This document shows, one piece after another, positions 1 to 64,000 of a stretch of DNA of 64,000 bases. This DNA is from a virus, in the IMG/VR virus record IMGVR_UViG_3300008740_000003, positions 1 to 64,000 of that record; one strand, written 5' to 3'. The number at the start of each line of letters is the position of its first letter. Position 1 is the first letter of the stretch. A model generated the notes under the pieces. It was not told where the DNA came from and made no database searches. It was given only the letters and a program-made list of their open reading frames with translations. A program made the translations under genes and the position numbers.

Positions 1-195
1 TTTATCAAAGATATTCAAAAATTAGAACGAACAGTAGATGCATTATTAAATGAAAGACTAGATGAATTAATAATGTTAAGACAAACTAAAAGACAAATTT
101 ACCAAGAACGTGCTGATCTAAAACTACAACAAGCAATTAATTCCTTAAAATATTTCAGTAAAATAGAGCTTTTGGCTTCCCTCTCAAAAGGATAA
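1..195 (+). CDS. Partial hypothetical protein (C-terminal end, helical)
   Basis: Frame 1 is open from the window start (FIKDIQKLERTVDALL...LLASLSKG) to TAA at 193-195; not in the ORF track. Confidence 0.6.
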   Translation, partial: FIKDIQKLERTVDALLNERLDELIMLRQTKRQIYQERADLKLQQAINSLKYFSKIELLASLSKG

Positions 196-198
196 ATA
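192..198 (+). promoter_or_regulatory. T4-type late promoter (ATAAATA)
   Basis: gATAAATAc upstream of ORF 276. The same motif recurs before genes at 771, 3326, 6140, 13076, 18269, 24072, 24467, 27899, 32887, 48879, 50676, 53970, 54695, 56677 and 59873. It matches the gp55-recognised TATAAATA box. Confidence 0.7.
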
Positions 199-275
199 CA
201 ATTGAACTAGACATCTTGTCTAGTCTTATGCAGACACAACTGCGTATAACATAGAACGTTAAAGGGAGAAAAAAA

Positions 276-710
276 ATGGGAAGACCAATCAAAAGTGCTG
301 AAACAGTTTCAGGCACAACAAAACTAGCAAGTGTTAACACAGCATTGCCAATCGGTTCAAGTGGACTTGCCGGCAATCAAATGATCTTTAAAGCATTTGT
401 TACAGGCGGTAGTGCAAAAGACACTACTAACATAATCCAAAAAGGTAATAAAAAGTTTCGTGTAACAACTTCAGACGGAACAGAAACGTGTGTACTTACA
501 GCAGTAGTACATGGTTCACTAGCGGCAAAACAAGTACAAGTAACTGGTACGGACAGTGCAGGTGGAACATACTTTGCAAGTAAACTCACAGGACGTCACT
601 TCATAGTTGGCGCTCTTGGAACAGGATCACAATTTGCAGTAGGAGACAAACCTCTTCTTGTTGCATCAGGTCCAACTATCAACGTAAGTGTTTCAATACC
701 TAACGGTTAA
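276..710 (+). CDS. Hypothetical virion protein (MGRP N-terminus, paralogue of 797..1174)
   Basis: 144-aa ORF with SD GGGAG, own late promoter and terminator; rich in small residues. Confidence 0.65.
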   Translation: MGRPIKSAETVSGTTKLASVNTALPIGSSGLAGNQMIFKAFVTGGSAKDTTNIIQKGNKKFRVTTSDGTETCVLTAVVHGSLAAKQVQVTGTDSAGGTYFASKLTGRHFIVGALGTGSQFAVGDKPLLVASGPTINVSVSIPNG

Positions 711-737
711 TAATATAAACTAGTAACGCATTAAATT

Positions 738-768
738 AAAAGGGGAAGTTTTCACGCTTCCCCTTTTT
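738..768 (+). terminator. Rho-independent terminator
   Basis: aaaaggggaag-ttttcacg-cttccccttttt hairpin ending in a T run, after ORF 276..710. Confidence 0.8.
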
Positions 769-796
769 GCATAAATAAGTATAATATAATAAGAAT

Positions 797-1174
797 ATGG
801 GTAGACCAGTTAATAAGAAGCATTTTGGGATCGTTAGTGGTTCAGACAACAATTTTGTTGTTACTGTGAAAGTGGGTACAAACGCAGTTTCGGCAGTTGG
901 AATCATTAAAAGACAGCGTGGATCTAATAAATTTATGGTAGATGATGCTAATGATGATTCCGGAAATGAAGGAGTATGTAGGTTAGTTGATAAAGACATT
1001 AATAATTTAAATGATAATGAAATGTCTTTAACAGGTTACATAGGCGGAGCTGGTGACGGAGTTAGACTTAGAAAAGTGTTTAATAGAACCGCAATTGACT
1101 TTTCTGGAGTCCGTTATAAGTGGTCAGTTACAGATGACTCAACTTCTAGCCAAATGGTTTTAACTGCGGTATAA
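797..1174 (+). CDS. Hypothetical virion protein (MGRP N-terminus)
   Basis: 125-aa ORF preceded by ATAAATA at 771; shares the MGRP start and general spacing with ORF 276. Confidence 0.65.
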   Translation: MGRPVNKKHFGIVSGSDNNFVVTVKVGTNAVSAVGIIKRQRGSNKFMVDDANDDSGNEGVCRLVDKDINNLNDNEMSLTGYIGGAGDGVRLRKVFNRTAIDFSGVRYKWSVTDDSTSSQMVLTAV

Positions 1175-1184
1175 GGATTTATAA

Positions 1185-2168
1185 ATGTCAAGATTTGTTA
1201 CAGTACCAAGTGGTGATTATAAAGTAAAAGTCCAATCTGGTGGAGAGATAAAACTAGACACTGGAGTTGGTGTAGGTAATACTAGAGTAACAGGAAATTT
1301 AATCGTTGAAGGAACTCAAACTCAAGTAACATCAAATGAACTAACTGTTAAAGATAATATTATAGAAGTTAATAGTGGTGAAAATGGTGTAGGTGTAACA
1401 CTTAATCAAGCTGGAATCAGAGTAGACAGAGGAAGTTTAGTTGACGTTCAAATGTTATTTGACGAACAACTTCAATGGAATGATCCAGATTCTCAAACAA
1501 CTAGAAGCGGTGCCTTTACATTTGTAGATGTAAATGGTGCATTATTAGGTTTAAGAACTAATAGTATTAGTACTGGTGGAGCACTTTATTTCCAACCAGG
1601 AGGTTCTGGTTCTTTAAGAATAATAAAATCAACTTATGAAACTTACGTAACAGACGATAATGATATTCCAAATAAAAAATATGTTGATACAGAGATTGTA
1701 AATCAAATTAATTCATTAGCACCTGTGTTTATTGGACATAGTGATACAGAAGTAAGAGTAGCAGATTCTACAGGTGGAGCAAATCCAGTTAGTCAAATTA
1801 CAATGTCAGTAGATGGTGTAGTAAAAGCTAAAATGAATGGTAATTCATTTGAAATGTATAATACTACTGTTGATATTGGTCAAATTAGAATAGAAGATAA
1901 TATCATATCAAATACTGTAAGTAATGGTGATTTAAAACTAGAAGCACCTGGTACAGGAGCAGTAAAAGTTACTGATTCCTTTGTAATTAAGCAAACACCA
2001 GGCACTTTAGACCCTGCTACAGACCCAGCAGTTGATACAGACGGCGTTAAACTATATTCAAAAGTTCCAGCAGGAGGCGATACTGGGCTTTATTATGTAA
2101 ATACAAATGATGCTTATGGAGAAATGATCAGTAAAAATAGATCAATGGTCCTAAGTATGGTGTTATAA
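1185..2168 (+). CDS. Virion structural / fibre-like protein
   Basis: VTGNLIVEGT...VKDNIIEVNSG and ISNTVSNGDLKLEAPGTG beta-repeat motifs typical of phage fibres; PNKKYVD motif. Confidence 0.65.
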   Translation: MSRFVTVPSGDYKVKVQSGGEIKLDTGVGVGNTRVTGNLIVEGTQTQVTSNELTVKDNIIEVNSGENGVGVTLNQAGIRVDRGSLVDVQMLFDEQLQWNDPDSQTTRSGAFTFVDVNGALLGLRTNSISTGGALYFQPGGSGSLRIIKSTYETYVTDDNDIPNKKYVDTEIVNQINSLAPVFIGHSDTEVRVADSTGGANPVSQITMSVDGVVKAKMNGNSFEMYNTTVDIGQIRIEDNIISNTVSNGDLKLEAPGTGAVKVTDSFVIKQTPGTLDPATDPAVDTDGVKLYSKVPAGGDTGLYYVNTNDAYGEMISKNRSMVLSMVL

Positions 2169-2177
2169 GGATAAAAA

Positions 2178-2513
2178 ATGGCTATTACAAACCACGAAAT
2201 TACAACAGGACAAACAGTAGATGTGTTACTTACACCAGCAGGTAAAAATTATGCAGTAACAGGTTTATTATTGTGTAATACTGCGGCCCAAGATCCAACA
2301 GGAGCAAATGATAGTACATTTACAATATATGCTGTAGCAAATGGTGAAACACCAGGTAATAAAAATATTATAGTCAACACGGCAACACTTCCAGGTGCTG
2401 AAACCTTCACGTTAGACACTGAAAAATTAATTTTAGCCGCAGGCGATAAAGTTAGAATTTCAATAGGTGGTGCATCTAATGTTGCTTCGGTTGTAAGCTA
2501 TCTGGAGGTATAA
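2178..2513 (+). CDS. Small beta-sandwich structural adaptor (family with 9973 and 24110)
   Basis: 111 aa; pattern shared with ORFs 9973 and 24110 (..P....AV..L..CN...EKLIL..G...V....SYLE). Confidence 0.65.
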   Translation: MAITNHEITTGQTVDVLLTPAGKNYAVTGLLLCNTAAQDPTGANDSTFTIYAVANGETPGNKNIIVNTATLPGAETFTLDTEKLILAAGDKVRISIGGASNVASVVSYLEV

Positions 2514-3307
2514 TGAAATTTCTAAAAAGACACTCTTCAAACAAAAGAATGCTTACTGGTAAAGGAGTAATCTACGATCAATATGAAAATATTAATATTG
2601 AATCTGTAGGTTCTATGCAAGTTCCTAAAGGAACAACTGCACAAAGACCCGGTTTACCTGTAGTTGGTCAACTCAGATATAACACAACAACTAAAAACTT
2701 TGAAGTTTATGAAGACGTATCCGGTGGTGGTACTATGTGGAAATCATTTAGATTAAGTGAACCATTTGCCGTAACTGTTCAATCATTAGGAAATGGAAAT
2801 GATACAGAAATAAACTTTGGTGTATTAGATTCAAATGATGGTGGTATGAAACAAGAACCATCTACACCTCAAGCAGTATTAGTAATGGTTGAAAACGTTT
2901 TACAAATTCCAACAACAAATTATACACTTATACAAAATCCTTGTTCTATTAATAGTACGCAAGTAGCTGTAGTACAAAATTATAATGCTTCTGGTGTTGG
3001 AGCATTTGAAAGTAAAGATTTAGCTTTTGTTGATTGGGTAGATAAAGGCTATCACGTAGGTCAACAATTTGTAGTAACAGGATCAGCTAATAACAATGGA
3101 ACTTATACAGTTACAGCAGTTACACAAACATATCTAAGTGCTAATCAATTACTTGTTAACGAAACTAACGTAGGAAATGCTCAAATTTTTGTAGATGGAA
3201 AAAGTTCAATAACATCTAATTCATATCCTGCAGGATATTATCTTGCATTTGGTACGCCTGTACCTACTGGAAAACCAGTAACAGTTATTCATAATTTAGA
3301 CAAATAA
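2513..3307 (+). CDS. Virion structural protein
   Basis: PKGTTAQRP...GQLRYNT trimeric fibre-connector motif; TAATG overlap with the upstream gene. Confidence 0.65.
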   Translation: MKFLKRHSSNKRMLTGKGVIYDQYENINIESVGSMQVPKGTTAQRPGLPVVGQLRYNTTTKNFEVYEDVSGGGTMWKSFRLSEPFAVTVQSLGNGNDTEINFGVLDSNDGGMKQEPSTPQAVLVMVENVLQIPTTNYTLIQNPCSINSTQVAVVQNYNASGVGAFESKDLAFVDWVDKGYHVGQQFVVTGSANNNGTYTVTAVTQTYLSANQLLVNETNVGNAQIFVDGKSSITSNSYPAGYYLAFGTPVPTGKPVTVIHNLDK

Positions 3308-3347
3308 ATTATTCCCCAAAATACCATAAATACGTAAAAGGAGTACT

Positions 3348-6098: not shown

Positions 6099-6138
6099 GC
6101 TATTATTCTAGCATACTACAACATAAATCCAAAACCAG

Positions 6139-6146
6139 TATAAATA
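6139..6146 (+). promoter_or_regulatory. T4-type late promoter TATAAATA (exact match)
   Basis: Exact consensus about 110 nt upstream of ORF 6254. Confidence 0.75.
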
Positions 6147-13098: not shown

Positions 13099-16000
13099 AT
13101 GGCAGATTTTAAAATAGATAGAATACGTTTTAAATGGAAAGGTGACTGGTTAGCAGGAACTCAGTACGTTAAAGATGATATTGTAAGATATGGTGCAAAA
13201 GTTTATACTTGTATCGAAGTTCACATTGCTGATTCCAATTTTTATAACGACTTAGATAATGCTACACCAAAATGGTCTCTGACTATGTCAGGTCAGTCTT
13301 GGACAGGAAACTGGCAACCTAATAAATTTTATAAAATAGGTGAAGTAGCAAAAGTTGGAGCAACACTTTACCAAGTTACTCAAGGTCACTTATCAAATGC
13401 AGATGCAAATAATGGAATATTAGGTGATGAAAGTAAATGGGAATACTTTGCAAGAGGAGAAAAATGGACATCTACATGGTTACCTAATACACTTTATAGT
13501 GTAGGTGAAACAGTTGTTTATGGTGGATCAGTTTGGAAGTGTGTAACAGCACATACATCATCTACAGCGGTAGCTGGATTAGAATCTCATCAAGCTAAAT
13601 GGACACAATATCATAGATCAGACAATTACAGAGGTTATTGGACACCTAACACAAGATATTATCCAGATGATATTACAAGATATGGTGGAACAGTTTATAG
13701 AGCTGTAGCAGGACACACTTCTGCTCCTACAGATTATTGGAATGGATTTACATCAGCAGATTATTCAACAAATTCTTCAAACGGTGTAGGTGCAATTTTC
13801 AATATTTTTAAAATTGGTACAAGTTTTTATGCAAAATTTACAAACACAGGAACAAACTTTGCGGCGGCAAATACAATTACTGTAGTAGGTAGTAAAGTAG
13901 GTGGAGCCGACGGTGTAAATGATGTAGTAATAACAATTAGTTCAGTAGATGGCGGTGGAGCAATTTCTACTTTTACTGTAAATGGTACAGCGGTTTCTGG
14001 AAATAATGGTTTAGAAGCCAATCAAGCGGCATGGGAAATAGTTATTGAAGGTATAGATTATATAGGTCATTGGGCAGAAGGAACAAAATATAATAAAGGT
14101 TCATTAGTATCTTGGAGTCCGGGAATTTGGAAAGTAACAACTGATCACTGGTCAATAACACCACACATGAATGAAACTAATTTTTCATTGTGGGTACCAG
14201 GTGCAGAATATGAAGGTTCTTGGGACGCAAACAAATATTATCAAAAAGGTGATGTTGTACAATTTGGTGGATACAGTTATTCTGCTTTAGTAAGCAATAC
14301 AAATATTGCACCAGGTGTAACAGATAGTACAAATACTTGGGAATTATTACAAACAGGTTATAACCATCGAGGTGAATGGGATAGTACAACTGCATACAGA
14401 ACAGGAGATGTAGTTAGAGCAGGTGGTAATTTATTCATAGCAGTACAAGCCAACACAAATGATGATCCAGTTACAACTTTTGTTTATGATCCAGGTAGTG
14501 ATGCTCCTGATCCTTGGCAATTATTAGTAACAGGTGTAGCATTTAAAGGTCCTTGGAAAGAAAGCGATGCCAATGGAGCAATTACTTACTATGTAGGTGA
14601 TGTAGTTACAGAAAAAGCAGATTTATATCGTTGTATAACAACTCACGTTGCAACTTCTTCAGATGCTAAACCAACTTTAGATGAAGAAAGTGAAAATGTT
14701 GGACCACTTTGGGTTAGATTGGCACAAGGGGCTACAGGTAACATATTAGAAATAGATGGAGATTTAAAATCTCATTCAGGGTCTGAAGATACTAGAATTG
14801 CAATTGGATCCTTTGGACAATTATTCAAAGTTAATGACGCTAATGATTATGGAGTTTGGGGAGACCATGATGTAGTAGCTAAAGTATTTTATGTTTCACC
14901 TTATGGAGAAGATAAATTAACAAGTGGTAAAAGTGTTGCAGGTCCATTTAAAACAATCAAATATGCTTGTGACTTTGTTGCACAAGACTTGGCAAGTAGA
15001 ACTCCAGCAACTATAATTGTTAAAACAGGAGTTTACGAAGAAATTTTACCTATAAAAGTTCCAGCGAAAGTTCATATTTGGGGAGACTTTACAAGACGTG
15101 GTGCAAACGTTAGACCTAAATCAGGTTACGAAGGAACAGATATGTGGTATCTACATGATGCAACAGGAATTGCAAATGTAACAATGCAAGGATTAACTGG
15201 TGGATTAGGTTCTGCAAATGAATATGGAACTAAACGTCCATCTGGTGCGGCTTATGTTTCTTTAGATCCAGGAAGTGGACCTAGTGATGGAACAGTTCAT
15301 ATTACAACAAAATCACCTTATATTAAAAATTGTTCAATATTTGGAACAGGGTGTACTGGATTAAAAGTAGATGGTGACTTACACAATGGCGGATTTAAAT
15401 CATTTGTTGCAAATGATTGTACACACTTTATTGAAAATGGTGTTGCTTGTTGGGTTAATGGAGATGCTAGAGTAGAATTTGTATCAGTATTTTCTTATTA
15501 TTCACACATAGGATATTTGGCAACAAACGGTGGAAAATTTAGAGCAACAAACGGTAACTGTTCATATGGAGATTTTGGTGCTGTTGCAGAAGGACTTTTA
15601 GCAAGTGAAACACCTATATCAGGAAAAATTAATAACCAATCACAAGAAGCACATATAGACAAAGTATATAATGATGAAAATGAAATTTTTGCTTTTGCTT
15701 ATGATCACGCTGGACAAGATTATACTTCAGCAAGTATAACAATTCAAGGATCAGGAGAAGGTGCGGCAGGAGCCATACGTTGGCCACAAATAAGACATGG
15801 TGCAGTAAACAAAATTAGAGTTTTAGGATTAGATGATTCTTCAAATCCAGGTGGTACAGGATATACAAGTGAATTAGGAAATGCTCAATCTGGTACAAAT
15901 AAAGAAATTAAATTAAGACCTCAATATGAAGGAACAGTAAATGAAACTGTTGGACAAAGAATTTATATTTGGGAAGGTGCAGGAAGAGGACAATATGGAT

Positions 16001-18300: not shown

Positions 18301-21300
18301 ATGGCTGAGTTTAAACTAGGTAGAATTAAGTTTGTTTGGAAAGGTTCTTGGGCAACTACTACAACTTATTATGTTGATGACGTAATAAGATATGGTGGAA
18401 GAACTTACAATTGCGTAACTAATCACACATCTGGTACATTTCAAACTGATTTAGGTGCTGTAAAATGGCAACTAATGTCAGATGGTATAGAGTGGAAAAG
18501 TGATTGGGTTGCAAATACAACTTATAAACCAAATGATGTAGTAAAATACGGTGGTTACATTTATCTTGCTAACACTGGTCATACCTCAGCGGCAACAGTT
18601 GCTTTAGGATTAGAAGCCGATCAAGCTAAATGGGATTTATTCATAGAAGGTTTTGATTGGAAATCTGATTGGACAATTTCTACAAGATATAAGAAAAACG
18701 ATTTAGTAAAATATGGTGGTTCAGTTTATCTTTGTATAACAGAACACGAATCAGATAACACAACAGCAGTTGGTCTAGAAGGTCAACAAGCTAAATGGGA
18801 AATTTTTGGAAAAGGTTTTGTTTGGTCAGGTGACTGGGCAATCAATACTAGATATAAAGTTAATGACACCGTTAGATATGGTGGACAAATTTACGTTGCT
18901 ATAACTGGACATACTTCAGCGGCAACTGAAGCAGATGGTTTAGAAGCCAACCAAGGACAATGGCAAGCCTTACACAAAGGAATTGAATTCAAAGGTGACC
19001 ACGCAACAGCAACAAGATATAAAGTAAATGATGTTGTAAAATATGGTGCAAACATTTGGATTTGTACAACACAACATACATCAACAGGAATTTTATCTGC
19101 CGATGAAGCTAATTGGTCAATTTTAATTCCAGGTATTGAATTTGAAGATACTTGGAGCAACTCTACAAATTATCAACCAGGTGACTTTGTTACTTACGGT
19201 GGATATAGTTATGTTGCAGATAGAAATAATATTAATAAACTTCCACCTGATAACTCAAGTGATTGGACTTTATTCGTAACAGGATTTAATTTAAGAGGTG
19301 ACTATAATGCCGCAACTGCATACAAACAAGGTGACGTTGTTAGAGTAGGCGGTTTCACTTATCTTGCAATTGCAGATGGAACAGGTAATAGACCACCAAA
19401 TGTAACTAAATGGGATAAACTTAACGAAGGATTATATTGGAAAGGTGCTTGGACAAATGCAACTTACTATGACAAAGGAGATATAGTAAGAGGTACAACA
19501 AACACTACTACAAGTTATCTTTGTATAACAGAACACACATCAAATAACGTTGGTCCATCAACAATTAATCAACCAGACTATCCACCAGGAGCAGGTGTTG
19601 ATACTAGTGCATGGCAATTATTGGCGGGTGGTGCAGAATCTTCTGTATTAACAACGAAAGGTGATCTTTTAATTTATGGTCAATCAGGACCAGCAAGATT
19701 ACCAATTGGTAAAGCAGGACAAACTTTAGTTGTAAATAATGCAGGTGACTTACCTGAATGGGGATACTTTGGTGCAATAGATCAAGTTTATTACACAGGT
19801 CCAGCAGGACAAGACAAACCTTCTCCAGATGCAGGAACAACACTTGACAAACCTTGGAAATCTTTAAGATATGCTTTATGGCAAATTGAACAAGGACCAA
19901 GAAATCCTCAAGGAACTTATTTGTTAGAAAGAAACAAAGCATTCATTCAAGAAGAAACTTTAGCTTGGATTAATGCACAAATTTCAGGAAACACTGCACC
20001 ATTTACAAATGCTTACACATACGACGCTGTTAAATGTAGAAGAGATGCAGGATTTATGATAGATGCACTTTTATATGATTTAAGACATGGCGGAAATGAA
20101 AAATCAAGATATGCAACACTTAGAATTTCAACACAAACAGAATTTGTAAATCATAAAGATGAATTAACAGCTTATCTTAATAGATTAGTTTATATTTCTC
20201 AACAATGTGTAGCCAATAATGCAGGTTATTCTGCTTTACAAGGTACAGTTAATCAACTTATTGATAATAATTACGTAACTGAATCTGCAGTATCAGGAGA
20301 AATTGCAAGTTATGTAAAAATTGCAACAGATTGTCTTGCGGCAGGAAATACAGCTGGAGTTCCAGCAGAAGAAGTTCCACAAACTACATTATTTGCTAAG
20401 AGCGGAACATATGAAGAAGTGTTACCTCTTTCAGTTAAAAAAGGATTAGCAATAGTAGGAGATGAATTAAGATCAACAATTGTTAAACCAGCAGGTCAAA
20501 TTGTTGGTACAAGTGACACACAATATACATTACAAGGTCTTGGTAGACTACAGGCAATTATATCTGATATAGTTACAAATAGTGCTGTAACACCAACACC
20601 AGTAGGCGGAGTTATAACTTTTACAACACCAGGTGCAGACTTAGGTTTTGTTAATGGAACTTATAATAACGTTGCAGTAACAGGTGGTTCTGGATCAGGA
20701 TGTACAATGGATGTAACTGTATTATCATACACAATTACTAGTCTTACTGTAAATCAACCAGGACAAAATTATGCAATTTCTGATTCATTAACAATTCCAG
20801 GAGCAACAATTGGATCTGATGGAGTATTCACAGTTAATAGTGTTACAACAGGAAATAATTTAACACAAAATACAGATGCACCAGCAGGTTCAGGAGCGGC
20901 AGGAACAGCGGCGGCGGCAATTGCACAAAATATTTACGACCATATAGATTTCAAAGTTAATGCTAATGGATCTGATCCAGCATTGACAGGAACAAATACT
21001 GCTCAAGCAGATGCAGGTTATTCAGATGCAAGATTAAGATTGTTAGCAAATATGGATTTTGTTGCTTTAGAAGTTGCAGAATTTGTACAAAGAGCAAATC
21101 CATCTCATAGTAATTTTAAAGATAAATGTTTAGCAGATGTCAAATATTATCTACGAGCAATAATGGATGATATGCAATATACTGGAAATTACAAATCATT
21201 AAAAGCATCTGATTCATATATTAATTCTAGACTTACTACAGGTTCAGCTACAAGCGATATGTTCTATGTAAGAAATGCAACAGGAATTAGAAATATGACA

Positions 21301-24072
21301 GTTCAAGGATTAAATGGAACATTAGGTTCTGCAAACGCTTATGGAACAAAACGTCCAACAGCAGGAGCATATGTATCATTAGATCCAGGCTGGGGAACAA
21401 CACACGAAGAAGTATGGATTACTTCTAAATCACCTTATATACAAAACGTAACAACATTTGGAACAGGATGTACTGGATTAAAAGTAGATGGTGCATTACA
21501 CGATGGCGGTTTTGATTCTGTTGTTGCAAATGACTTTACGCAATTATGTGATGATGGTATAGGTGCATGGATTACAAATTTAGGTAGAGTAGAACTTGTA
21601 TCAGTATTTTCTTATTACGCACACATCGGTTATCTATCAGAAAATGGTGGAAAACTTCGTGCTACAAACGGTAACTCATCTTATGGTGACTATGGTTGCG
21701 TTGCAGAAGGAGTTGATTCTTCTGAAACTGCTATAACAGGAACAGTTGATAATCATAGTGAAGACGCAGATGTTGCCAATGTAATGACAGATGGTAATAA
21801 AATTTTAGCATTCGAATATAATAATGCTGGAAGACAATATTCTGGTGCTACACTTACAATATCAGGAGATGGTTATGGAATTACAGGTGAAACTGCAACT
21901 TATAATACTGGTGGTGTTTACAAAATTAGATTATTAGAAACTAATACAGTAACAAGTAACCTTGGTGGTGCGACATATATGTCTGCTACTAACAATGCAC
22001 AAACAGGTACAGCTACACAAATTACAATAGCTAACGCAGATAGTAACGCCAGTGGTGCATACACAGGTATGGCAATATGGATTACAAAAGGTAAAGGTGT
22101 AGGTCAATATGCATACATCGACGCTTACAATTCTGCAAGTAAAGTTGCAACTGTTAAAAAATATTCAGACGACGCGGCAGGATGGGAAAGATATGGCGGA
22201 GACGCAGTTGAAACTCTTTTAGATGCTACAACAGAATATACAATAGAACCTAGAGTAGTTATTGGTGCTCCAAATAATGATGGTAGTACAGCAGTTAGAC
22301 AAGCAGTTGCAAGAGCAATTGTAACTTCTGAAAAGATTTCTTCAGTAAGAATTATAGATTGTGGTGCAAGTTATACTTCAGCACCAGCAGTAACATTTAC
22401 TGATCCTAATAATACTACAGATGCTCCAGTACAATCATACATAGATGATGGTGTACTAGGTCAACCAACTTTCACTGCAGGTGGAACAGCTTATAATACT
22501 GCAAGTGTAACAATTACAGAAGAACCTACAGCTAAAAACATAACAGCTATTTCACAAGCCACTGTAGCTGTTGTTACATCAGCAGGACATAATCTAGTTG
22601 ACGGAACTAAAGTAACATTTGCAAGTGTTGGTGGAATGTCAGAATTAAACACAGGTGTATGGTATTACATTAAAACATTAACAGTAGATACATTTGGATT
22701 ATATACTAACGATGATTTAACTGCTGGATTAGATTCTACAAACTTTACAACATACACTTCAGGTGGAACTGCAACACCATTTGGTGGACACAGAGATGAA
22801 TTCCAAAACGGAAGATATATTCAAGTAGAAGGTTTATCAAAAGTTCCACAAACAGGATCAAATCTAGAATTTGATGGAATTTCAACTGAAACATTTCCTT
22901 ATGCATATACTCTTATAACTGCAAACAAGGCTTATATAGAAGATGAAGTAATAGCATGGTTTAATACAACTTATCCAGGAATACACAATGCTGGACAAAA
23001 TACAAAATGCGAAAGAGATGTTGGATATGAAATTGATGCAATGGCATATGATATAAAATACGGTGGTAATACAGAAACTATTAGAGTTGCTAAAGCATAC
23101 TGGCAAGGTGTTACTTCTCAATTAGCGGCAGGTGAACAAGCATACGCAGTTGCAGTTAATAACAAAGTAAAAGAAATGCTTAACGATTATATTTTAGATA
23201 ACGTAGCTTGGACAACAACACAAAGTCCAGTTGTTACATCACAAACAACTAATTCTAATAATGGTGAGTTAGGTGTAAAAGACAAAGTTACAAGTTTAAT
23301 TAAAACTTTAAATGATGTAATTGAAAATGGTTTAACTTCTGTACCAACTACACAAGGATTAAACAATCCATACTTTAAATTAGTAAGTGTACAAAAATTA
23401 CGTGGTACTCAAGCTCCATATTCAGCATTATTACAAATTAGTCCACAAATGACAGCCGCTCAAGCTCCAGCACATGGAACTGGTTTATCTGTTAGACTTA
23501 GATATTCACAAGTTAGATTAACTGGTCACGATTTCCTAGGAGTAGGAACTGGTAACCAAGCATCTACAAATTATCCTGGAACGCCAAATAGAACTAACGA
23601 CCAAGAAAGAGAAACTGTTGAAAGAGGTGGTGGTAGAGTATTCTTTACTGCAACTGACCAAGACGGTAACTTTAGAGTTGGTGACTTGTTCTCAGTACAA
23701 CAGGCGACTGGTATTGCATCATTAAATGCAGATGCATTTAACATTTCAGGATTACAAGAACTTCAGTTAGGAGATTTAACACTAGGCGGAACATCTGCTT
23801 CTGTTAATGAATTCTCTACTGACGGTACATTTGCGGCAAATAGCGACAAAATTGTACCAACACAAAGAGCGATAAGAACATATGTTTCATCACAAATTGG
23901 TGGTGGTGCAAGTGCTATTAACGTAAATACTATTACTGCTGGTCAAATTGTGATCACTAGTAATACAATAAGTACAACAACAGGAGCAAGTATCCAAATT
24001 AACGCTGGTGTTAACTTCAAAAAAGGAGTTGCAGGAGCGCCATTGGCAATGAATTACTTGATCCATAGTTAA
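18301..24072 (+). CDS. Large tail/baseplate fibre protein with CBM5/12-like repeats, beta-helix, three helical KCxxD domains and an E1-FCCH-like domain
   Basis: Colinear with 13099 (MAEFKLGRIKF vs MADFKIDRIRF; shared GCTGLKVDG and VFSYY); inserts KCRRD, KCLAD, KCERD; ITAISQATVAVVTSAGHNL...GGMSELN. Confidence 0.75.
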   Translation: MAEFKLGRIKFVWKGSWATTTTYYVDDVIRYGGRTYNCVTNHTSGTFQTDLGAVKWQLMSDGIEWKSDWVANTTYKPNDVVKYGGYIYLANTGHTSAATVALGLEADQAKWDLFIEGFDWKSDWTISTRYKKNDLVKYGGSVYLCITEHESDNTTAVGLEGQQAKWEIFGKGFVWSGDWAINTRYKVNDTVRYGGQIYVAITGHTSAATEADGLEANQGQWQALHKGIEFKGDHATATRYKVNDVVKYGANIWICTTQHTSTGILSADEANWSILIPGIEFEDTWSNSTNYQPGDFVTYGGYSYVADRNNINKLPPDNSSDWTLFVTGFNLRGDYNAATAYKQGDVVRVGGFTYLAIADGTGNRPPNVTKWDKLNEGLYWKGAWTNATYYDKGDIVRGTTNTTTSYLCITEHTSNNVGPSTINQPDYPPGAGVDTSAWQLLAGGAESSVLTTKGDLLIYGQSGPARLPIGKAGQTLVVNNAGDLPEWGYFGAIDQVYYTGPAGQDKPSPDAGTTLDKPWKSLRYALWQIEQGPRNPQGTYLLERNKAFIQEETLAWINAQISGNTAPFTNAYTYDAVKCRRDAGFMIDALLYDLRHGGNEKSRYATLRISTQTEFVNHKDELTAYLNRLVYISQQCVANNAGYSALQGTVNQLIDNNYVTESAVSGEIASYVKIATDCLAAGNTAGVPAEEVPQTTLFAKSGTYEEVLPLSVKKGLAIVGDELRSTIVKPAGQIVGTSDTQYTLQGLGRLQAIISDIVTNSAVTPTPVGGVITFTTPGADLGFVNGTYNNVAVTGGSGSGCTMDVTVLSYTITSLTVNQPGQNYAISDSLTIPGATIGSDGVFTVNSVTTGNNLTQNTDAPAGSGAAGTAAAAIAQNIYDHIDFKVNANGSDPALTGTNTAQADAGYSDARLRLLANMDFVALEVAEFVQRANPSHSNFKDKCLADVKYYLRAIMDDMQYTGNYKSLKASDSYINSRLTTGSATSDMFYVRNATGIRNMTVQGLNGTLGSANAYGTKRPTAGAYVSLDPGWGTTHEEVWITSKSPYIQNVTTFGTGCTGLKVDGALHDGGFDSVVANDFTQLCDDGIGAWITNLGRVELVSVFSYYAHIGYLSENGGKLRATNGNSSYGDYGCVAEGVDSSETAITGTVDNHSEDADVANVMTDGNKILAFEYNNAGRQYSGATLTISGDGYGITGETATYNTGGVYKIRLLETNTVTSNLGGATYMSATNNAQTGTATQITIANADSNASGAYTGMAIWITKGKGVGQYAYIDAYNSASKVATVKKYSDDAAGWERYGGDAVETLLDATTEYTIEPRVVIGAPNNDGSTAVRQAVARAIVTSEKISSVRIIDCGASYTSAPAVTFTDPNNTTDAPVQSYIDDGVLGQPTFTAGGTAYNTASVTITEEPTAKNITAISQATVAVVTSAGHNLVDGTKVTFASVGGMSELNTGVWYYIKTLTVDTFGLYTNDDLTAGLDSTNFTTYTSGGTATPFGGHRDEFQNGRYIQVEGLSKVPQTGSNLEFDGISTETFPYAYTLITANKAYIEDEVIAWFNTTYPGIHNAGQNTKCERDVGYEIDAMAYDIKYGGNTETIRVAKAYWQGVTSQLAAGEQAYAVAVNNKVKEMLNDYILDNVAWTTTQSPVVTSQTTNSNNGELGVKDKVTSLIKTLNDVIENGLTSVPTTQGLNNPYFKLVSVQKLRGTQAPYSALLQISPQMTAAQAPAHGTGLSVRLRYSQVRLTGHDFLGVGTGNQASTNYPGTPNRTNDQERETVERGGGRVFFTATDQDGNFRVGDLFSVQQATGIASLNADAFNISGLQELQLGDLTLGGTSASVNEFSTDGTFAANSDKIVPTQRAIRTYVSSQIGGGASAINVNTITAGQIVITSNTISTTTGASIQINAGVNFKKGVAGAPLAMNYLIHS

Positions 24073-49706: not shown

Positions 49707-50300
49707 ATGATTATCGGTATTTGTGGATTAATGGGTAGTGGTAAAGATACAATAGCTAACCATCTTATTCAAAAACATCAATTTAAAAAAATCTCATTCG
49801 CAGACAAATTAAAAGAGTCTGTTGCTACGATGTTTGATTGGGACAAAACTATGCTTGACGGTCAAACAGATGAAAGTAGACAATGGCGTGAACAACCAGA
49901 TGAATATTGGTCTAAAGAAGTAGGTAAATCTATTACTCCAAGATTTGTATTACAAAAATTTGGTACAGAATGTATGCGTGATAATTTTTATGACGGTATA
50001 TGGGTTAGTATGACTAAAAAGAAAATTTTAGATAATCCTAATTCTAGCTGGGTTATTCCTGATGTTAGGTTTGAAAACGAAGTTAAAATGATTAAAAGTA
50101 TTGGTGGTCAAGTATGGTGGGTAAGAAGAGGTGAATTACCTACATGGTTTAGAGTTTATCAAGATATAGGTGTTGAACCTAAAGATGTACACCCTAGTGA
50201 ATGGGCTTGGGCAAAAGCAGACTTTGATAAAATTTTAGATAATAATTCTACAGTAGATAGTCTTAGAAATCAGGTACAAGATCACCTTGTTTCCATTTAA
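49707..50300 (+). CDS. gp1: Deoxynucleoside monophosphate kinase (T4 gp1-like)
   Basis: IIGICGLMGSGKDT, SFADKLK, TPRFVLQKFGTE, PDVRFENE, HPSE. Confidence 0.88.
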   Translation: MIIGICGLMGSGKDTIANHLIQKHQFKKISFADKLKESVATMFDWDKTMLDGQTDESRQWREQPDEYWSKEVGKSITPRFVLQKFGTECMRDNFYDGIWVSMTKKKILDNPNSSWVIPDVRFENEVKMIKSIGGQVWWVRRGELPTWFRVYQDIGVEPKDVHPSEWAWAKADFDKILDNNSTVDSLRNQVQDHLVSI

Positions 50301-50604
50301 ATCCTTGTTTGTGTAAAGTTCTTTGACAGTTAGCACATACCGTTTTAAGGTTTTTAAAATTACAATTAGTTAAATGTCCGTCAATATGGTAAACATTAAA
50401 TTGTTCTGTTGAGTCACTTTTATATCCACACTTATCGCATTTTGCTTTCATACGGTATCCTGCATTATACCATTTAGGCATTCCATGACTTGTTCCCCCA
50501 TACCTAATACAAGCTTCACATTTTCTTCTGTAAAACGTTATACCCTTTTTACGATAGTTAATTGCACAAGGATTCCTACGACAATAGTTACATAAAGGTC
50601 TCAT
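50263..50604 (-). CDS. Zn-finger / HNH-like protein
   Basis: CxxC motifs plus YHIDG...N....NL..VCANC; GTAAATA promoter variant upstream on the - strand. Confidence 0.65.
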   Translation of the reverse strand: MRPLCNYCRRNPCAINYRKKGITFYRRKCEACIRYGGTSHGMPKWYNAGYRMKAKCDKCGYKSDSTEQFNVYHIDGHLTNCNFKNLKTVCANCQRTLHKQGFKWKQGDLVPDF

Positions 50605-56668: not shown

Positions 56669-56698
56669 TATTCTAAATAAATATAGTAGCATATAATT

Positions 56699-57756: not shown

Positions 57757-57757
57757 G

Positions 57758-58234: not shown

Positions 58235-58279
58235 TTTTCAAAACATTTTCCACCCCCCAGTTTACTACTAAATATTAGT

Positions 58280-59872
58280 ATGTCAATGAAAAGTTTAGAT
58301 GGTGTACTAACCAAAAAAGCACACCTTAAGGAAAGATTTACAGAGGATCAACTAACAGATCTGACTAAATGTACAAATCCAGATAATGGTTTTGAACATT
58401 TTGCTAAAAATTATTTTCATATCCAACATCCTGTACAGGGTAAATTATTATTCAAACCTTATGAATATCAATCTAGACTTTTAAACAGTTATCATAATTA
58501 TAGATTTAATATTAATATGCTACCACGACAAAGTGGAAAAACTACTTCAGCCGCTTGTTATCTATTATGGTATGCAATGTTTCATCCAGACCAAGTTGTA
58601 TTAATTGCCGCACACAAATTTGCTGGTGCCCAAGAAATTATGCAACGTATTCGTTATGGATATGAATTATGTCCTGATCATATTAGAGCAGGTGTAATAA
58701 ACTATAATAAAGGTTCTATGGAATTTGAAAATGGAAGTAGAATAGTTAGCACAACAACTACTACAAATACTGGAAGAGGTATGGCGATATCATTATTATA
58801 TTGTGATGAGTTTGCTTTCGTAAATGCCGGTATTGCCAGAGAATTTTGGACTTCTATTTCTCCTACACTAGCAACAGGAGGTAAAGCAATAGTTACATCA
58901 ACTCCTAATTCAGATGAAGATATGTTTGCAACTTTATGGAAACAATCTCAAGATAAATTTGATGAACACGGTAATGAAGCAGAACTTGGATCAAATGGCT
59001 TTCATGGTTATACTTGTATGTGGAACGAACATCCGGATCGAGATGAAGAATGGAAACAGGCAGAATTAAGTAGAATAGGTGAAGAAAGATTTAGACGAGA
59101 ATATGGTTGTGAATTTTTAGTTTATGATGAAACTTTAATTAATAGTATTTTCTTATCAACGTTAGATGGAAAAGAACCTATAATGAATATGGGACAAACA
59201 CGTTGGTATGAAAAAATTAATTCAGAAAGTATTTACGTAATAGCATTAGATCCTGCAATGGGTACCGGTGGAGACAATGCCGCAATACAAGTTTATGAAT
59301 TACCAAGTTACAAACAAGTAGGCGAATGGAAACATAATATGACTGGTATACCACAACAAGTTAGAATTCTAAAAGACATATCAACTTACATTAAAGATGA
59401 ATCAGGAAATCCTAATGGTTCAAATATATATTGGAGTGTAGAAAATAATACAATAGGTGAGTCAGCATTATTAGTAATTCAAGACTTTGGTGAGGATTCT
59501 ATACCCGGTATGTTTGTAAATGAACCTATTAGAAAAGGTCATATTAGAAAATTTAGAAAAGGTTTTAATACAACTCATAAAACTAAAATAAGTGCCTGTG
59601 CAAGATTAAAATCAATGATAGAAAGAAACAAAATGACAATTCATAGTAAACCTCTAATTAGTGAACTTAAATCATATGTGGCGGCAGGTTCCTCTTATAG
59701 AGCTAAAACAGGTGAAAAAGATGACCTAGTTAGTGCATCTTTATTAGCTATGAGGATCATACAAGTATTAAAAGACTGGGATCCTAAAGTATATACGTCA
59801 TTTAGCCAGGCAGATGAAGATACAACAGAAAGAGTTATACCACTACCAGTGTTCGCAAGTTACACAGGGTAG
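58280..59872 (+). CDS. gp17: Terminase large subunit
   Basis: YQ motif, PRQSGKTT Walker A, LLYCDEFAF Walker B, STPN, ALDPAMG and DDLV nuclease motifs; no intein visible. Confidence 0.95.
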   Translation: MSMKSLDGVLTKKAHLKERFTEDQLTDLTKCTNPDNGFEHFAKNYFHIQHPVQGKLLFKPYEYQSRLLNSYHNYRFNINMLPRQSGKTTSAACYLLWYAMFHPDQVVLIAAHKFAGAQEIMQRIRYGYELCPDHIRAGVINYNKGSMEFENGSRIVSTTTTTNTGRGMAISLLYCDEFAFVNAGIAREFWTSISPTLATGGKAIVTSTPNSDEDMFATLWKQSQDKFDEHGNEAELGSNGFHGYTCMWNEHPDRDEEWKQAELSRIGEERFRREYGCEFLVYDETLINSIFLSTLDGKEPIMNMGQTRWYEKINSESIYVIALDPAMGTGGDNAAIQVYELPSYKQVGEWKHNMTGIPQQVRILKDISTYIKDESGNPNGSNIYWSVENNTIGESALLVIQDFGEDSIPGMFVNEPIRKGHIRKFRKGFNTTHKTKISACARLKSMIERNKMTIHSKPLISELKSYVAAGSSYRAKTGEKDDLVSASLLAMRIIQVLKDWDPKVYTSFSQADEDTTERVIPLPVFASYTG

Positions 59873-59887
59873 ATAAATACAAGATAT

Positions 59888-61966
59888 ATGAACACAAGAG
59901 CAGTTGCAAACGATTTATTCGCTAAAATTAGGGGACGATTTCCAGCAGTCACTTTGGGTAATGACGCAGGAGAAGTTACTAGTAATCCCGAAGAAGCACG
60001 GTATTTTGACTTCGATTTTCAAGAAGCTGGAAAGCAACTAGGAAAGGTAAGTATTAGTATAGACGACAAAGATGGTCTAGTAGTACTACACAATACGGAT
60101 TTTATAGAGGATGCCGATAGTGGAGTAAAGCATAAGTGGTTTGAATTTCTTAAAGAATTAAGAAATTTTGCTAAATCAAGAATGCTTAATTTTGATACAA
60201 GGGATATTACTAAAAGCAACCTTGAAAAACGAGACTATCAATATTTGAGTCAAACACGTCAAGATGGCGAGGAAAAAAGAATGAGTGAATCTAATATATA
60301 CGGAACTACAAAAACTAGTTTTCAACCTATTGGAAATGCACGTTTAGTTATTAAACACTCTGCTCCAATAGATATGTCTGTTGGTGCTAACAGATCTCGA
60401 AGAATAGAATCTTTATTCATAGAAAGTCCTAAAGGAGAAAGATTTAGATATCCTCTTAAACATCTTAACGGTGCAAGAGCAATGGCTCAACATATTTCCA
60501 ATGGCGGTGTTCCATATGATGATTTTGGAAAACATATAGCAGGATTAAGTGAAGAACTTTCAAAACTAAAACAATTTAAAACATATATTAATCGTTCAGC
60601 TGTGATGGCAGAAGGTCTTAAAAGTTATCTATCTATTGTAGATGAAAGAGTAGAAGAAATTAAAAGTACCTGCCAAAAATTACAAAGAAATTCATATTAT
60701 TCAGAAGCAATTAAAGATTATAAAACAACAGAAGTTAAAGAAGTTCCTGAAGAAATTAAACAAAATTGGATAGATGAATTAACAATTAAAACTTTCAAAG
60801 AAGAATTAAAAGACGTATTTCCTTACATTTATAATTTAGTTTCAGAAAAAACAACAGCAAAAGAAGTTACACCAGAAGACTTTGATGAAGCAGGAGGCTT
60901 TCAAGGAGAAACAGAACCTCATATGCTTCAGTATGATTTAGCAGGTGACTTTGATCAAGAAAATGGTGTATCGGACGAACACGCAAAAGAAATTGAAGCC
61001 AAATTAGCTGATGCTGGTATTACAGCAGAAGTTCATCCAGACGAAATGCGTTATCAAGGAATTCATATTCATACATTAGCATCTGCAGAAGAAGTAGAAA
61101 AAGTATTAGCTGGAATGATTGAACATATTGCTGACATAGAAGATTTTGAACAAGCATTGAATACTATTGTAGGCGAAGCAGAAAATGGTTTATTTTCATC
61201 TGATCCTGAAGAAGCTAAACAATCTTTGACAAAATTAAATAATTTAATGGACAAACATTTCCCTGCAGGAGTAAATGGTGTTAATGGTTTAGAAAGTTTA
61301 CAAGGTATTATCGACGATAAAGAATTAAACGATCAAATAGTGTCAATGGGTAAAGAAGATAGTGATGCTTGTATAAGAGGCACAATAATGAATTATATTA
61401 AAAGCAAAAGACCAGATTTAGCTCAAAGCATCAATGTAGGTGATATGAAACCAGAAGGCGAAACATTTACTTGGGAAAATATTAAACCTTATGTGTCAAT
61501 GTACAAAGGTGATGACGGAAAAACAGTTTATGATGTTTTAGACAAAGATAGTAAGTCTGTATTCCAATCAAATAAAGCCAAAGAAGCAATGGCATATTTG
61601 AAAAAGAATTTTGACGCATTAAGAAAAGGTGAAATGAAACCAGAAATGCCAGCAGGTTGGGAAGATGATTCCGGTAATGTTTCTATAATGAAAGGACCAG
61701 ATGGCAAAATTAGTTTAGAACCAAAAGCTGAACCAGGTAAAGAAGAAGAACCAGAACTTGATGATCCAAAAAATTTAGCTGAATTTATTAAAAGTCATTT
61801 TGATTATACAACTAACAATTTTCCAAAAGGTGAAACAGGTCTTTTAACAGCAGTTGAAAAAAGATTTGGTGAAAAACACGTAAGAACTGCTGAAGCTATT
61901 ATCCAAAAATTAATGACGGGCCAAGATAAGCAAATTAATAGAATAAAAAAATTGGCTGGCGTTTAA
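59888..61966 (+). CDS. Large hypothetical acidic protein, probably late/virion-internal
   Basis: 692 aa; late promoter at 59873; GERFRYP..HLNGARAMAQH block; ends RIKKLAGV. Confidence 0.6.
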   Translation: MNTRAVANDLFAKIRGRFPAVTLGNDAGEVTSNPEEARYFDFDFQEAGKQLGKVSISIDDKDGLVVLHNTDFIEDADSGVKHKWFEFLKELRNFAKSRMLNFDTRDITKSNLEKRDYQYLSQTRQDGEEKRMSESNIYGTTKTSFQPIGNARLVIKHSAPIDMSVGANRSRRIESLFIESPKGERFRYPLKHLNGARAMAQHISNGGVPYDDFGKHIAGLSEELSKLKQFKTYINRSAVMAEGLKSYLSIVDERVEEIKSTCQKLQRNSYYSEAIKDYKTTEVKEVPEEIKQNWIDELTIKTFKEELKDVFPYIYNLVSEKTTAKEVTPEDFDEAGGFQGETEPHMLQYDLAGDFDQENGVSDEHAKEIEAKLADAGITAEVHPDEMRYQGIHIHTLASAEEVEKVLAGMIEHIADIEDFEQALNTIVGEAENGLFSSDPEEAKQSLTKLNNLMDKHFPAGVNGVNGLESLQGIIDDKELNDQIVSMGKEDSDACIRGTIMNYIKSKRPDLAQSINVGDMKPEGETFTWENIKPYVSMYKGDDGKTVYDVLDKDSKSVFQSNKAKEAMAYLKKNFDALRKGEMKPEMPAGWEDDSGNVSIMKGPDGKISLEPKAEPGKEEEPELDDPKNLAEFIKSHFDYTTNNFPKGETGLLTAVEKRFGEKHVRTAEAIIQKLMTGQDKQINRIKKLAGV

Positions 61967-61993
61967 TCCTAAAATCATATCCAAAAAAAATAC

Positions 61994-62050
61994 TTGACTA
62001 AATATTAGAGTTAATATAGTATTGACATTATGTTTGTCTTGTGCTACATT
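61994..62050 (+). promoter_or_regulatory. Tandem sigma70-type promoters for the gp32 operon
   Basis: TTGACT(61994)-17-TAGTAT and TTGACA(62022)-17-TACATT with an extended -10 TG. Confidence 0.65.
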
Positions 62051-62097
62051 AACAATAAGGCACAATTAACAAAGGCTAAAAATAGGAGGCTTATATT

Positions 62098-63045
62098 ATG
62101 GCAACATTAGCAGACATTCGTGCAAAACTTAAAGAACAAGAAGCACGACAAGGCGGCGGAAGCCGATCAGGCGGAGACAACGCCATTTTTCCATTTTGGA
62201 ATCTGAAAGAAGGAGAGCAGGCAACTGTTCGTTTCTTGCCGGATGGAAATAAAGAAAACACTTTTTTCTGGAAGGAACGTTTAATGATTAAACTACCTTT
62301 CCAAGGCATAAAAAGTGAAACAGACTCTAAACCGGTACAGGTACAAGTTCCATGTATGGAAATGTATGGAGAATCTTGTCCTATACTATCAGAAGTTAGA
62401 GGATGGTTTAAAGATCCCAAGTTAGAGGATATGGGAAGAAAATATTGGAAGAAAAGATCTTATATCTTTCAAGGTTTTGTTGGAACAAATCCTTTAAATG
62501 AGGAAACTACACCAGAAAATCCAATTAGAAGATTTATAATTGGACCACAAATTTTCCAAATTATCAAAGGTGCATTAATGGACCCAGACATGGAAGATTT
62601 GCCAACGGATTCAGTAAACGGTGTTGATTTTAGAATAATCAAAACTAGCAAAGGTGGCTATGCAGATTATTCAACTTCGACTTGGTCAAGAAAATCAAGA
62701 CCACTTTCTGAAGAAGAAAATAAAGCAGTTGAACAACATAGTTTGTGGAACTTGAGCGACTTTCTTCCAAAGAAACCATCTGAAGTAGACGTTAAAGTAA
62801 TCAAAGAAATGTTTGAAGCATCTGTGGATGGCGAAGCATATGACCAAGAAAAATATGGTCAATACTTTAGACCAGCAGGTATTAGTGCAAGAACAGGTGA
62901 TCCAGTAGCAACGCCAAAAGCGACTACACCAGAACCTAAAAAAAGTACGGTTCAGGAAACACCTAAGTCTAATGCTGATACTAATAAACAGAATAGTAAG
63001 GCTGAAGACATTTTAGCGATGATTAGAGCAAGACAACAAAAGTAA
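62098..63045 (+). CDS. gp32: Single-stranded DNA-binding protein (T4 gp32-like)
   Basis: VRFLP, C.EMYGESCPI, RKYWKKRSY, GYADYSTS.W; SD AGGAGG. Confidence 0.88.
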   Translation: MATLADIRAKLKEQEARQGGGSRSGGDNAIFPFWNLKEGEQATVRFLPDGNKENTFFWKERLMIKLPFQGIKSETDSKPVQVQVPCMEMYGESCPILSEVRGWFKDPKLEDMGRKYWKKRSYIFQGFVGTNPLNEETTPENPIRRFIIGPQIFQIIKGALMDPDMEDLPTDSVNGVDFRIIKTSKGGYADYSTSTWSRKSRPLSEEENKAVEQHSLWNLSDFLPKKPSEVDVKVIKEMFEASVDGEAYDQEKYGQYFRPAGISARTGDPVATPKATTPEPKKSTVQETPKSNADTNKQNSKAEDILAMIRARQQK

Positions 63046-63054
63046 CTTAATTAA

Positions 63055-63081
63055 TATGGTGGGGGCTAGTTCCCCACTATA
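63055..63081 (+). terminator. Strong hairpin after gp32 (terminator or processing/stability stem)
   Basis: tatggtggggg-ctagt-tccccactata 11-bp stem including G-U pairs; no T tract. Confidence 0.5.
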
Positions 63082-63089
63082 GAAATATT

Positions 63090-63188
63090 ATGAAAAGAGA
63101 AATTAAAAAAATAATAGACTGGATATTATATAAACAAATTCCTGCCTGGATATTGTTAGTAGTAATAATTATCTGGATCTTAATATAG
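63090..63188 (+). CDS. Small membrane peptide (32 aa; not in the ORF track)
   Basis: MKREIKKIIDWILYKQIPAWILLVVIIIWILI*; fills the gap between gp32 and UvsX; weak SD. Confidence 0.5.
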   Translation: MKREIKKIIDWILYKQIPAWILLVVIIIWILI

Positions 63189-63196
63189 GATAAACA

Positions 63197-64000
63197 ATGG
63201 CAAATAAGGCATTCGACGCATCAAAATTCAGAAAAAATTTAACAAAAAGTATAACAGGATTAGGTATAGGATTTACAGATCCAACAGATTGGATAAGCAC
63301 AGGTAATTATGCATTAAATTATCTAATATCAGGAGATTTCAATAAAGGTGTTCCATTAGGAAAAGTTACAGTATTAGCAGGTGAACCACAAGCAGGTAAA
63401 TCTTATATAGCATCAGGTAATATTGTTAAAGCGGCACAAGATCAAGGAATTTTTGTAATTTTAATAGATTCAGAAAATGCTTTAGATGAAAAATGGTTAC
63501 AAGCACTTAACGTAGATACAGATGAGAAAAAACTTTTAAAATTAAGTTTATCTATGATAGATGATGTAGCAAAAACTATATCAACATTTATGAAAGATTA
63601 CAAAGAACAATATGCAGATAATAAAGTAGATGCACCAAAAATTTTATTTGTAGTTGATAGTTTAGGTATGTTATTAACACCAACTGATGTTGATCAATTT
63701 GAGAAAGGTGATATGAAAGGTGATTTAGGTAGAAAAGCAAAATCACTAACAGCACTTGTAAGAAATTGTGTTAATATGTTTGGTAGTTGGAATGTCGGAC
63801 TTGTTGCAACAAATCATACTTACGCATCACAAGATATGTTTGACCCAGATGATAAAATATCAGGTGGACAAGGATTTGTATATGCATCAAGTATTGTAAT
63901 TGCAATGAAAAAATTAAAGTTAAAAGAAGATGAAGATGGTAATAAAATAACAGATGTACGTGGTATTAGAGCATCTTGTAAAGTAATGAAAACAAGATTT
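63197..64000 (+). CDS. uvsX: RecA-like recombinase (UvsX), partial; runs off the window
   Basis: MANKAFDASKFRK...WISTGNYALNYLISG...G.P.GKVTVLAGEPQAGKS...IDSENALD...VVDSLG...ATNHTY...SGG; absent from the track because it has no stop. Confidence 0.92.
   Translation, partial: MANKAFDASKFRKNLTKSITGLGIGFTDPTDWISTGNYALNYLISGDFNKGVPLGKVTVLAGEPQAGKSYIASGNIVKAAQDQGIFVILIDSENALDEKWLQALNVDTDEKKLLKLSLSMIDDVAKTISTFMKDYKEQYADNKVDAPKILFVVDSLGMLLTPTDVDQFEKGDMKGDLGRKAKSLTALVRNCVNMFGSWNVGLVATNHTYASQDMFDPDDKISGGQGFVYASSIVIAMKKLKLKEDEDGNKITDVRGIRASCKVMKTRF

Follow-up and report, generated by a model that had tools for sequence, protein, structure and literature searches.

A clean, family-wide case of GCWGC avoidance in uncultured marine T4-like jumbo phages

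The question raised by the DNA described here is why the five-base word GCWGC (GCAGC or GCTGC) is missing from it, and what could have kept it out. The window, i.e., the whole stretch of 64,000 nucleotides that was analysed, is the first 64 kb (positions 1–64,000) of an 89,496-bp viral contig with a GC content of 32.8% (IMG/VR record IMGVR_UViG_3300008740_000003), and the contig is about one quarter of the genome of a T4-like jumbo phage that is uncultured, marine and abundant. An original prediction, made from the letters of the window by eye, had claimed a systematic avoidance of GCWGC and had ascribed it to a defence system of the host; the counts, the relatives of the phage and the genes within reach were used to follow up both parts.

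Neither GCAGC nor GCTGC occurs on either strand of the window (positions 1–64,000), and both counts stay at zero to the end of the 89.5-kb contig. The numbers of GCWGC sites expected in the window were 48 with an order-1 Markov model and 68 with a maximal-order model, and GCAGC was the most under-represented 5-mer of all (z = −11.6, both strands of the window). For the whole contig, 200 synonymous-codon shuffles within its 81 open reading frames (ORFs) gave 81.5 ± 3.8 sites, with a minimum of 69, and 200 whole-codon shuffles gave 122.8 ± 11. The avoidance noticed by eye was thus confirmed in full, with an observed/expected ratio of 0 against Markov and codon-shuffled expectations alike, far from a ratio near 1. 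The words that had been named as present are all there: 178 GATC, 18 GGCC, 35 CCGG, 67 GCGGC (with 16 GCCGC) and GANTC in all four forms. Normal counts were obtained for 50 kb from each of three control phages (observed vs expected: P-SSM2, 67 vs 63; S-PM2, 63 vs 58; HTVC008M, 65 vs 59), so the effect comes neither from the method nor from AT-rich marine T4-like phages in general. The Pseudomonas jumbo phage PA5oct, which provides the closest cultured match of the large terminase subunit (TerL; 53% identity), was normal as well, with 51 sites observed vs 42 expected.

The missing sites were replaced. GCSGC is enriched about fivefold in the contig (99 seen vs 19.5 expected) and GCNGC as a whole is unchanged (99 vs 101), which means that the lost GCWGC sites were swapped one for one. 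Since 94 of the 98 GCSGC copies inside genes lie in frame 0, the replacements were synonymous. Every one of the 94 Ala-Ala pairs in the contig ORFs opens with GCG (73) or GCC (21), while Ala before any other residue is written as GCA or GCT in 91% of cases (GCA 1081, GCT 563, GCC 113, GCG 54); the original prediction had said as much of the Ala-Ala pairs checked by eye and had called single Ala codons overwhelmingly GCA/GCT. Its five cited positions also read as claimed, for instance the Ala-Ala pair written GCG GCA at 522–527 on the plus strand, with further examples at 13861, 20908, 54340 and 59681. Ala-Ala pairs are themselves somewhat rare (94 vs 138 ± 11 in residue shuffles). The word is kept out almost wholly by synonymous choice, with GCG or GCC placed before another Ala, and the further choices are NGT before AGC or TGC and CAA or a non-CTG Leu codon before C.

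As 78 of the 82 sites expected in the contig are Ala-Ala pairs and frames 1 and 2 contribute an expectation of only 3.3, the contig taken by itself does not reveal whether a DNA word or a codon pair is being avoided. The relatives do. When frames 1 and 2 were pooled over four purged genomes, 0 GCWGC were seen vs 53 expected, and relatives with normal GCWGC counts do have sites in these two frames. What is purged is the DNA word itself, whatever the reading frame, by a test that rests on the relatives.

The relatives were collected and treed with the T4-type large terminase gene of the window (58280–59872, plus strand; Terminase_6N/6C) as the marker, and the best 80 of 595 confirmed TerL relatives in IMG/VR, with TerL identities from 99 down to 71%, were used. 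Sixty-six of these 80 loci have no GCWGC site at all, five have one to three sites and nine are normal. The 66 site-free loci (769 kb, partly redundant) together contain 0 sites vs about 805 expected with the maximal-order model or 750 with the order-1 model. Among the longer records, G001, G002 and G004, counted as full contigs (314 kb in total), contain 0 sites vs 170, 151 and 84 expected, G003 (90 kb) has 0, and G006 (58.8 kb), a member of the few-site group, has only 3. The sites of the few-site clade stand at orthologous places among its members.

On the TerL tree (82 rows, rooted on PA5oct, which forms a long branch), the GCWGC state requires three changes. The normal loci form two clades nested among the purged ones, one composed of L047–L052 and the other of L055, L070 and L075, and the few-site clade adjoins the second of them. 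An excess of GCSGC is retained both in L070 of that normal clade (21 vs 6.3 expected) and in the few-site clade (43 vs 10). Because of this residual excess and the nested position of the normal clades, the pattern fits an ancestral purge that was later relaxed. The comparison thus supports a purge that a large phage family has maintained during much of its evolution, with two reversals.

A tenth normal relative, L102 (CAYVBV010000066.1), is a 10-kb contig with 33 sites and a GC content of 41%, and its nearest relatives are in the second normal clade. It was binned in a metagenome-assembled genome (MAG) titled as an uncultured Polynucleobacter sp., which is either a hint of the host or a binning error. 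Polynucleobacter is a freshwater genus, and the placement of L102 would fit a change of host or habitat that accompanied the loss of the purge.

GCWGC is not the only word missing from these genomes. A scan of 1650 palindromic IUPAC patterns in the contig against 40 synonymous shuffles returned exactly two with a ratio of at most 0.15 and at least 15 sites expected, namely GCWGC and RCATGY. The latter (ACATGT, ACATGC/GCATGT and GCATGC), the NspI word, is a second full purge: it is absent from positions 1–64,000 and from the contig, where 39.6 ± 5.2 sites were expected from the 40 shuffles. Its absence accounts for most of the roughly twofold deficit of CATG (111 observed vs 199–203 expected). 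Partial deficits were also recorded in the contig against synonymous shuffles (AAGCTT, 5 vs 16; CTGCAG, 19 vs 33; GGCC, 27 vs 40; AGCT, 214 vs 275), and CATCC/GGATG was about twofold low in all four genomes (this contig, G001, G002 and G004) with the maximal-order model.

The behaviour of GCGC depended on the neighbouring base. The contig carries 13 GCGC vs 36 expected, every one of them as GGCGC or GCGCC, and GCGC with other flanks (HGCGCD) is absent (0 vs 16.1 ± 2.6). Twelve of these sites are in the window, between 610 and 54662 (starting at 610, 7260, 10171, 11210, 16214, 24037, 24381, 34682, 43041, 51588, 54651 and 54659), and their G/C flanks follow from the zero count of HGCGCD in the contig. 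In the four genomes pooled, GGCGC/GCGCC was seen 149 times vs 111 expected and all the other flank combinations 0 times vs 234; HGCGCD taken separately gave 0 vs 16, 49, 45 and 27 for this contig, G001, G002 and G004 with synonymous shuffles. The same dependence was seen for AGCT, which is absent from G002 (0 vs 306) and reduced in G004 (10 vs 227): the ten copies remaining in G004 are all GAGCT/AGCTC, and HAGCTD is absent there (0 vs 167). No such escape exists for GCWGC, for which GGCWGC was found at 0 of approximately 100 expected site-sides.

The relatives also purge CTGCAG, AAGCTT and other words, and RCATGY, AGCT, HGCGCD, CTGCAG and AAGCTT are purged in differing combinations among close relatives, a pattern typical of classic site avoiders. 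On the TerL tree, 8 changes are needed for RCATGY, 8 for AGCT and 6 for HGCGCD, vs 3 for GCWGC, and the states of the first three words are not tied to the GCWGC state. A single agent for GCWGC and GCGC, which a seeming link between the two purges had suggested, was considered and is weakened by G006, which has 3 GCWGC and 14 HGCGCD, and by G003, which has 0 and 6; the cross-table of the GCWGC and HGCGCD states is 45/7/3/7.

What agent could hold one word at zero for so long? TseI and ApeKI are type IIP enzymes that recognise precisely GCWGC and cut it when it is unmodified (as given in the available text of PMC4926085), in agreement with the original statement that it is a type II target. The specificity to be read from the purge is the same, GCWGC, since GCSGC is tolerated and indeed enriched. 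We therefore consider it probable, though with reservations, that the purge results from long continuous selection by a nuclease exact for GCWGC, which most likely came from the restriction-modification system of a marine host. The cutter could recognise a palindrome, like TseI and ApeKI, or be asymmetric, like the BbvI-type enzymes, which cut GCAGC; as the phage genome is double-stranded DNA, the two kinds would leave the same purge and be indistinguishable from it. Such an enzyme would be encountered in essentially every infection, and each GCWGC site would be costly, so that mutations creating the word would be removed. For RCATGY in this phage, and for AGCT, GCGC and other words in its relatives, the same logic could apply with different agents of quicker turnover. 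Three elements of this explanation are inferred: a nuclease as the agent, the host as its owner, and phage DNA lacking protection at GCWGC sites.

Several points weigh against this explanation. The purge is stable across a TerL divergence of up to about 29%, which is surprising since restriction systems are usually patchy among strains, and P-SSM2, S-PM2 and HTVC008M, cultured marine phages whose hosts are abundant, are without it. The few-site clade tolerates three conserved GCWGC sites, so selection has not been absolute everywhere. The sequence at hand covers 19–32% of each genome, and a phage-borne nuclease or modification system could lie beyond it. The TseI/ApeKI-like enzyme is deduced only from its footprint. 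Single-molecule real-time (SMRT) sequencing detects 5-methylcytosine poorly. Within the available text of the two sources on SMRT methylomes, covering Lake Biwa and the Pacific, GCWGC methylation was assigned to Chloroflexi bins only (10.1101/380360; PMC8919816), which is a weak lead to a host and not a prediction of one.

Direct searches for a host gave little more. Among 185,579 species genomes, the TerL search returned one MAG contig, the Polynucleobacter-titled L102 of the GCWGC-normal clade, and the HldE-like gene of the window had no cellular relative in the same set. No literature report of GCWGC avoidance in this phage lineage, or of a host for it, was found, including in the available parts of PMC9123017 and PMC12619734; in the corresponding part of PMC11094077, GCWGC occurs only within a 16S primer. 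The suggestion that the purge offers a handle for host prediction consequently fails at present, with the three cultured marine phages, of Prochlorococcus, Synechococcus and Pelagibacter, lacking the purge and the methylation recorded, in the sources as available, for Chloroflexi only. As to the claim of strong long-term selection by a host GCWGC defence, its first half is upheld by a purge that acts on the DNA word, is family-wide and has been long kept; the attribution of the nuclease to the host is the half that these results do not carry.

The alternative that survives best, possible but rather doubtful in our view, is that the nuclease is the phage's own: a lone GCWGC cutter without a methylase, turned on the DNA of the host or of rival phages, to which a site-free genome would be immune and whose gene, once lost, would allow the purge to relax. 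The purge is total, deep and more stable than the others (3 changes vs 6–8), as would be expected for a vertically inherited gene. The genes within reach speak against it. The searchable share was about a quarter to a third of each genome, and perhaps 150 kb of the roughly 350 kb in all, as estimated from contig overlap. No type II restriction-enzyme model was matched among the 296 ORFs of this contig (G000), G001, G002 and G004 (PADLOC, E ≤ 0.001; among the matches listed, for 25 of 28 families). The ICEA (PF05315) and EcoRII-C (PF09019) models had no match in five records, and the control genomes were equally silent, which makes this result uninformative. Purged and normal genomes have all genes within approximately 10 kb of TerL in common.

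Two nuclease-like genes of the window were followed as candidates for such a cutter. The first encodes a 113-aa Cys-rich HNH-type protein (50263–50604, minus strand; weak match to an HNH model, E = 1.7e-4) and lies antisense between the sheath gene and one for a deoxynucleoside monophosphate (dNMP)-kinase-like protein. All loci covering the region carry this core gene in the same syntenic position (19 of 19 purged, 2 of 2 few-site and 4 of 4 normal); PA5oct gave no match within the 41.5-kb stretch examined, and a PDB sequence search with the protein gave nothing meaningful (best E = 0.42). It was rejected as the driver of the GCWGC purge, being present in the GCWGC-normal loci L048, L049, L051 and L075, and as an NspI- or NlaIII-like cutter of RCATGY, being present in the RCATGY-normal loci L033, L038, L054, L057 and L079. 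The second encodes a protein of 145 aa whose N-terminal domain resembles that of the TnsA endonuclease (PF08722; 56231–56668, plus strand), and it lies about 1.6 kb upstream of the terminase. The TnsA endonuclease N-terminal domain has a restriction-enzyme-like fold. All 10 records that were searched contain PF08722, the GCWGC-normal G007, G008 and G009 among them, and PA5oct has the gene too, as do 39 of 39 purged, 4 of 4 few-site and 9 of 9 normal loci. Being a core gene regardless of the purge state, it was rejected as the GCWGC cutter on presence and absence; it may be a packaging-linked nuclease.

Beyond these two, three adjacent genes without Pfam matches lie in the sugar cluster of the contig (73473–76188), the outer two being paralogues. 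The middle one, at 74513–75352, is the only gene of this contig that is missing from the few-site contig G006. It carries a DxD motif and stands among glycosyltransferase-like paralogues, and it is not a nuclease candidate. A match to a "dCTPase" model proved to be the dNMP-kinase-like ORF. As separate observations, G002 (L090–L095), which is without AGCT, GCWGC, RCATGY and HGCGCD, has an Eco57I/MTS-type methyltransferase-like gene, and a SegE-like GIY-YIG endonuclease is present in both G001 and G002.

A further reading combines a phage-borne nuclease with protection of the DNA. The survival of GCGC, and of AGCT in G004, next to a G hints at partial, context-specific protection. No homologue of C5-methylase (PF00145), TGT/DpdA (PF01702), QueC (PF06508) or thymidylate synthase (PF00303) was found in the records, which cover 4–32% of each genome. 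The original supposition that the DNA is not globally protected by base modification accordingly stays plausible, with no modification-gene homologue in contigs covering 19–32% of each genome, and the flank-dependent survival qualifies it. PA5oct resembles the present phage as a low-GC jumbo myovirus (Wroclawvirus) with the same gene order around the sheath, tube and terminase genes, and differs in its normal GCWGC count. It has been reported, in the available text of a preprint, to contain modified G and to resist several restriction enzymes (PMC12191111), and modification would therefore replace avoidance as its means of protecting DNA. Taken jointly, the GCWGC purge, nearly universal and the most stable one in this cosmopolitan family, could have been left by a nuclease without a methylase that the phages inherit vertically and turn on host or rival DNA, and the survival of GGCGC and GAGCT could reflect guanines modified at G-purine steps. 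Such a modification would be akin to that suspected in PA5oct and would shield certain restriction sites, GCWGC not among them; we offer this combination tentatively and would not expect it to be correct.

Could GCWGC instead be avoided as a signal for the phage's own packaging, recombination or replication machinery? The trait is family-wide and stable, and two core nuclease-like genes stand beside the terminase. GCWGC counts are nevertheless normal in two nested clades that share the core genes and their order, the word is a known restriction target, and these genomes have also been purged of several further palindromes of the restriction type, so that this possibility is regarded as very unlikely.

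Another candidate is a BisI-like enzyme, dependent on modification, that cuts GCNGC with several modified cytosines, which would imply cytosine-modified phage DNA, the opposite of what had been inferred at the outset. GCGC, the target of the methyl-directed GlaI, is purged too. Rusinov et al. (2018; available text of PMC6286503) included GCWGC in their analysis of type IIM sites, and some BisI homologues prefer it (PMC4926085, as available). The enzymes of this family, according to the same portion of the latter source, cut modified GCNGC with either centre, so the swap from GCWGC to GCSGC would be of no help against them; with GCSGC enriched fivefold and GCNGC unchanged, there has been no selection against both centres. 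Moreover, no homologue of a C5-methylase or of a thymidylate synthase/hydroxymethylase was found in the available contigs, and we give this reading very little credence.

Finally, a cause that is not at the DNA level, either a translational bias in Ala-Ala codon pairs, to which the predominance of such pairs among the expected sites would lend itself, or a sequencing or assembly artefact, can be dismissed with near certainty in view of the empty frames 1 and 2 of the pooled genomes, the normal frame-0 counts in relatives, PA5oct and the three cultured phages of similar composition, the synonymous nature of the changes, the recovery of the same sequence in at least five studies and the agreement of 66 separate IMG/VR contigs.

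The remaining content of the DNA is in keeping with its assignment. The contig has 81 called ORFs and is 95.7% coding. By Pfam-type profile search, the window encodes T4-type gp9/10-like, gp15-like, sheath and large terminase proteins, and it also contains huge fibre-like proteins, a carbamoyltransferase and the HldE-like enzyme; for a 1923-aa protein at 18301–24072 (plus strand), Pfam at E ≤ 0.001 gave only CBM_5_12 and E1_FCCH. The remainder of the contig carries a cluster of sugar and lipopolysaccharide genes, RecA/UvsX, a DnaB-like helicase, a primase and a ResIII helicase. The CheckV completeness was 24% for this contig and 19–32% for related ones, from which a genome of about 350 kb was estimated. 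An 8-kb stretch had no megablast match among cultured phages, and near-identical DNA (at least 92% of sampled words) was found in at least 20 marine metagenome runs from at least 5 studies.

The avoidance of restriction sites by non-temperate double-stranded DNA phages has long been known (Rusinov et al. 2018, PMC6286503, as far as its text was available), and the GCWGC purge is a very clean, family-wide case of it. As in the cases described there, a restriction word is removed mostly by synonymous choice, more than one word is involved, and relatives differ in their sets. Unlike in those cases, the removal here is complete (0 of about 80 sites per 90 kb) and common to most of a large uncultured marine jumbo family, and the escape of the GCGC layer depends on a neighbouring base, as would not be expected from avoidance alone.

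For an abundant family of uncultured marine giant phages, the absence of GCWGC together with a mosaic of other missing words provides a marker that can be read from sequence alone. If the host is found, GCWGC, RCATGY and GCGC without a G flank would predict its restriction repertoire, and an enzyme that belonged to the phage itself, should this prove true, would exemplify restriction without modification. That GCGC and AGCT survive only with certain flanks hints at partial DNA modification. These phages would rely on the loss of sites, whereas their cultured relative PA5oct reportedly relies on base modification.

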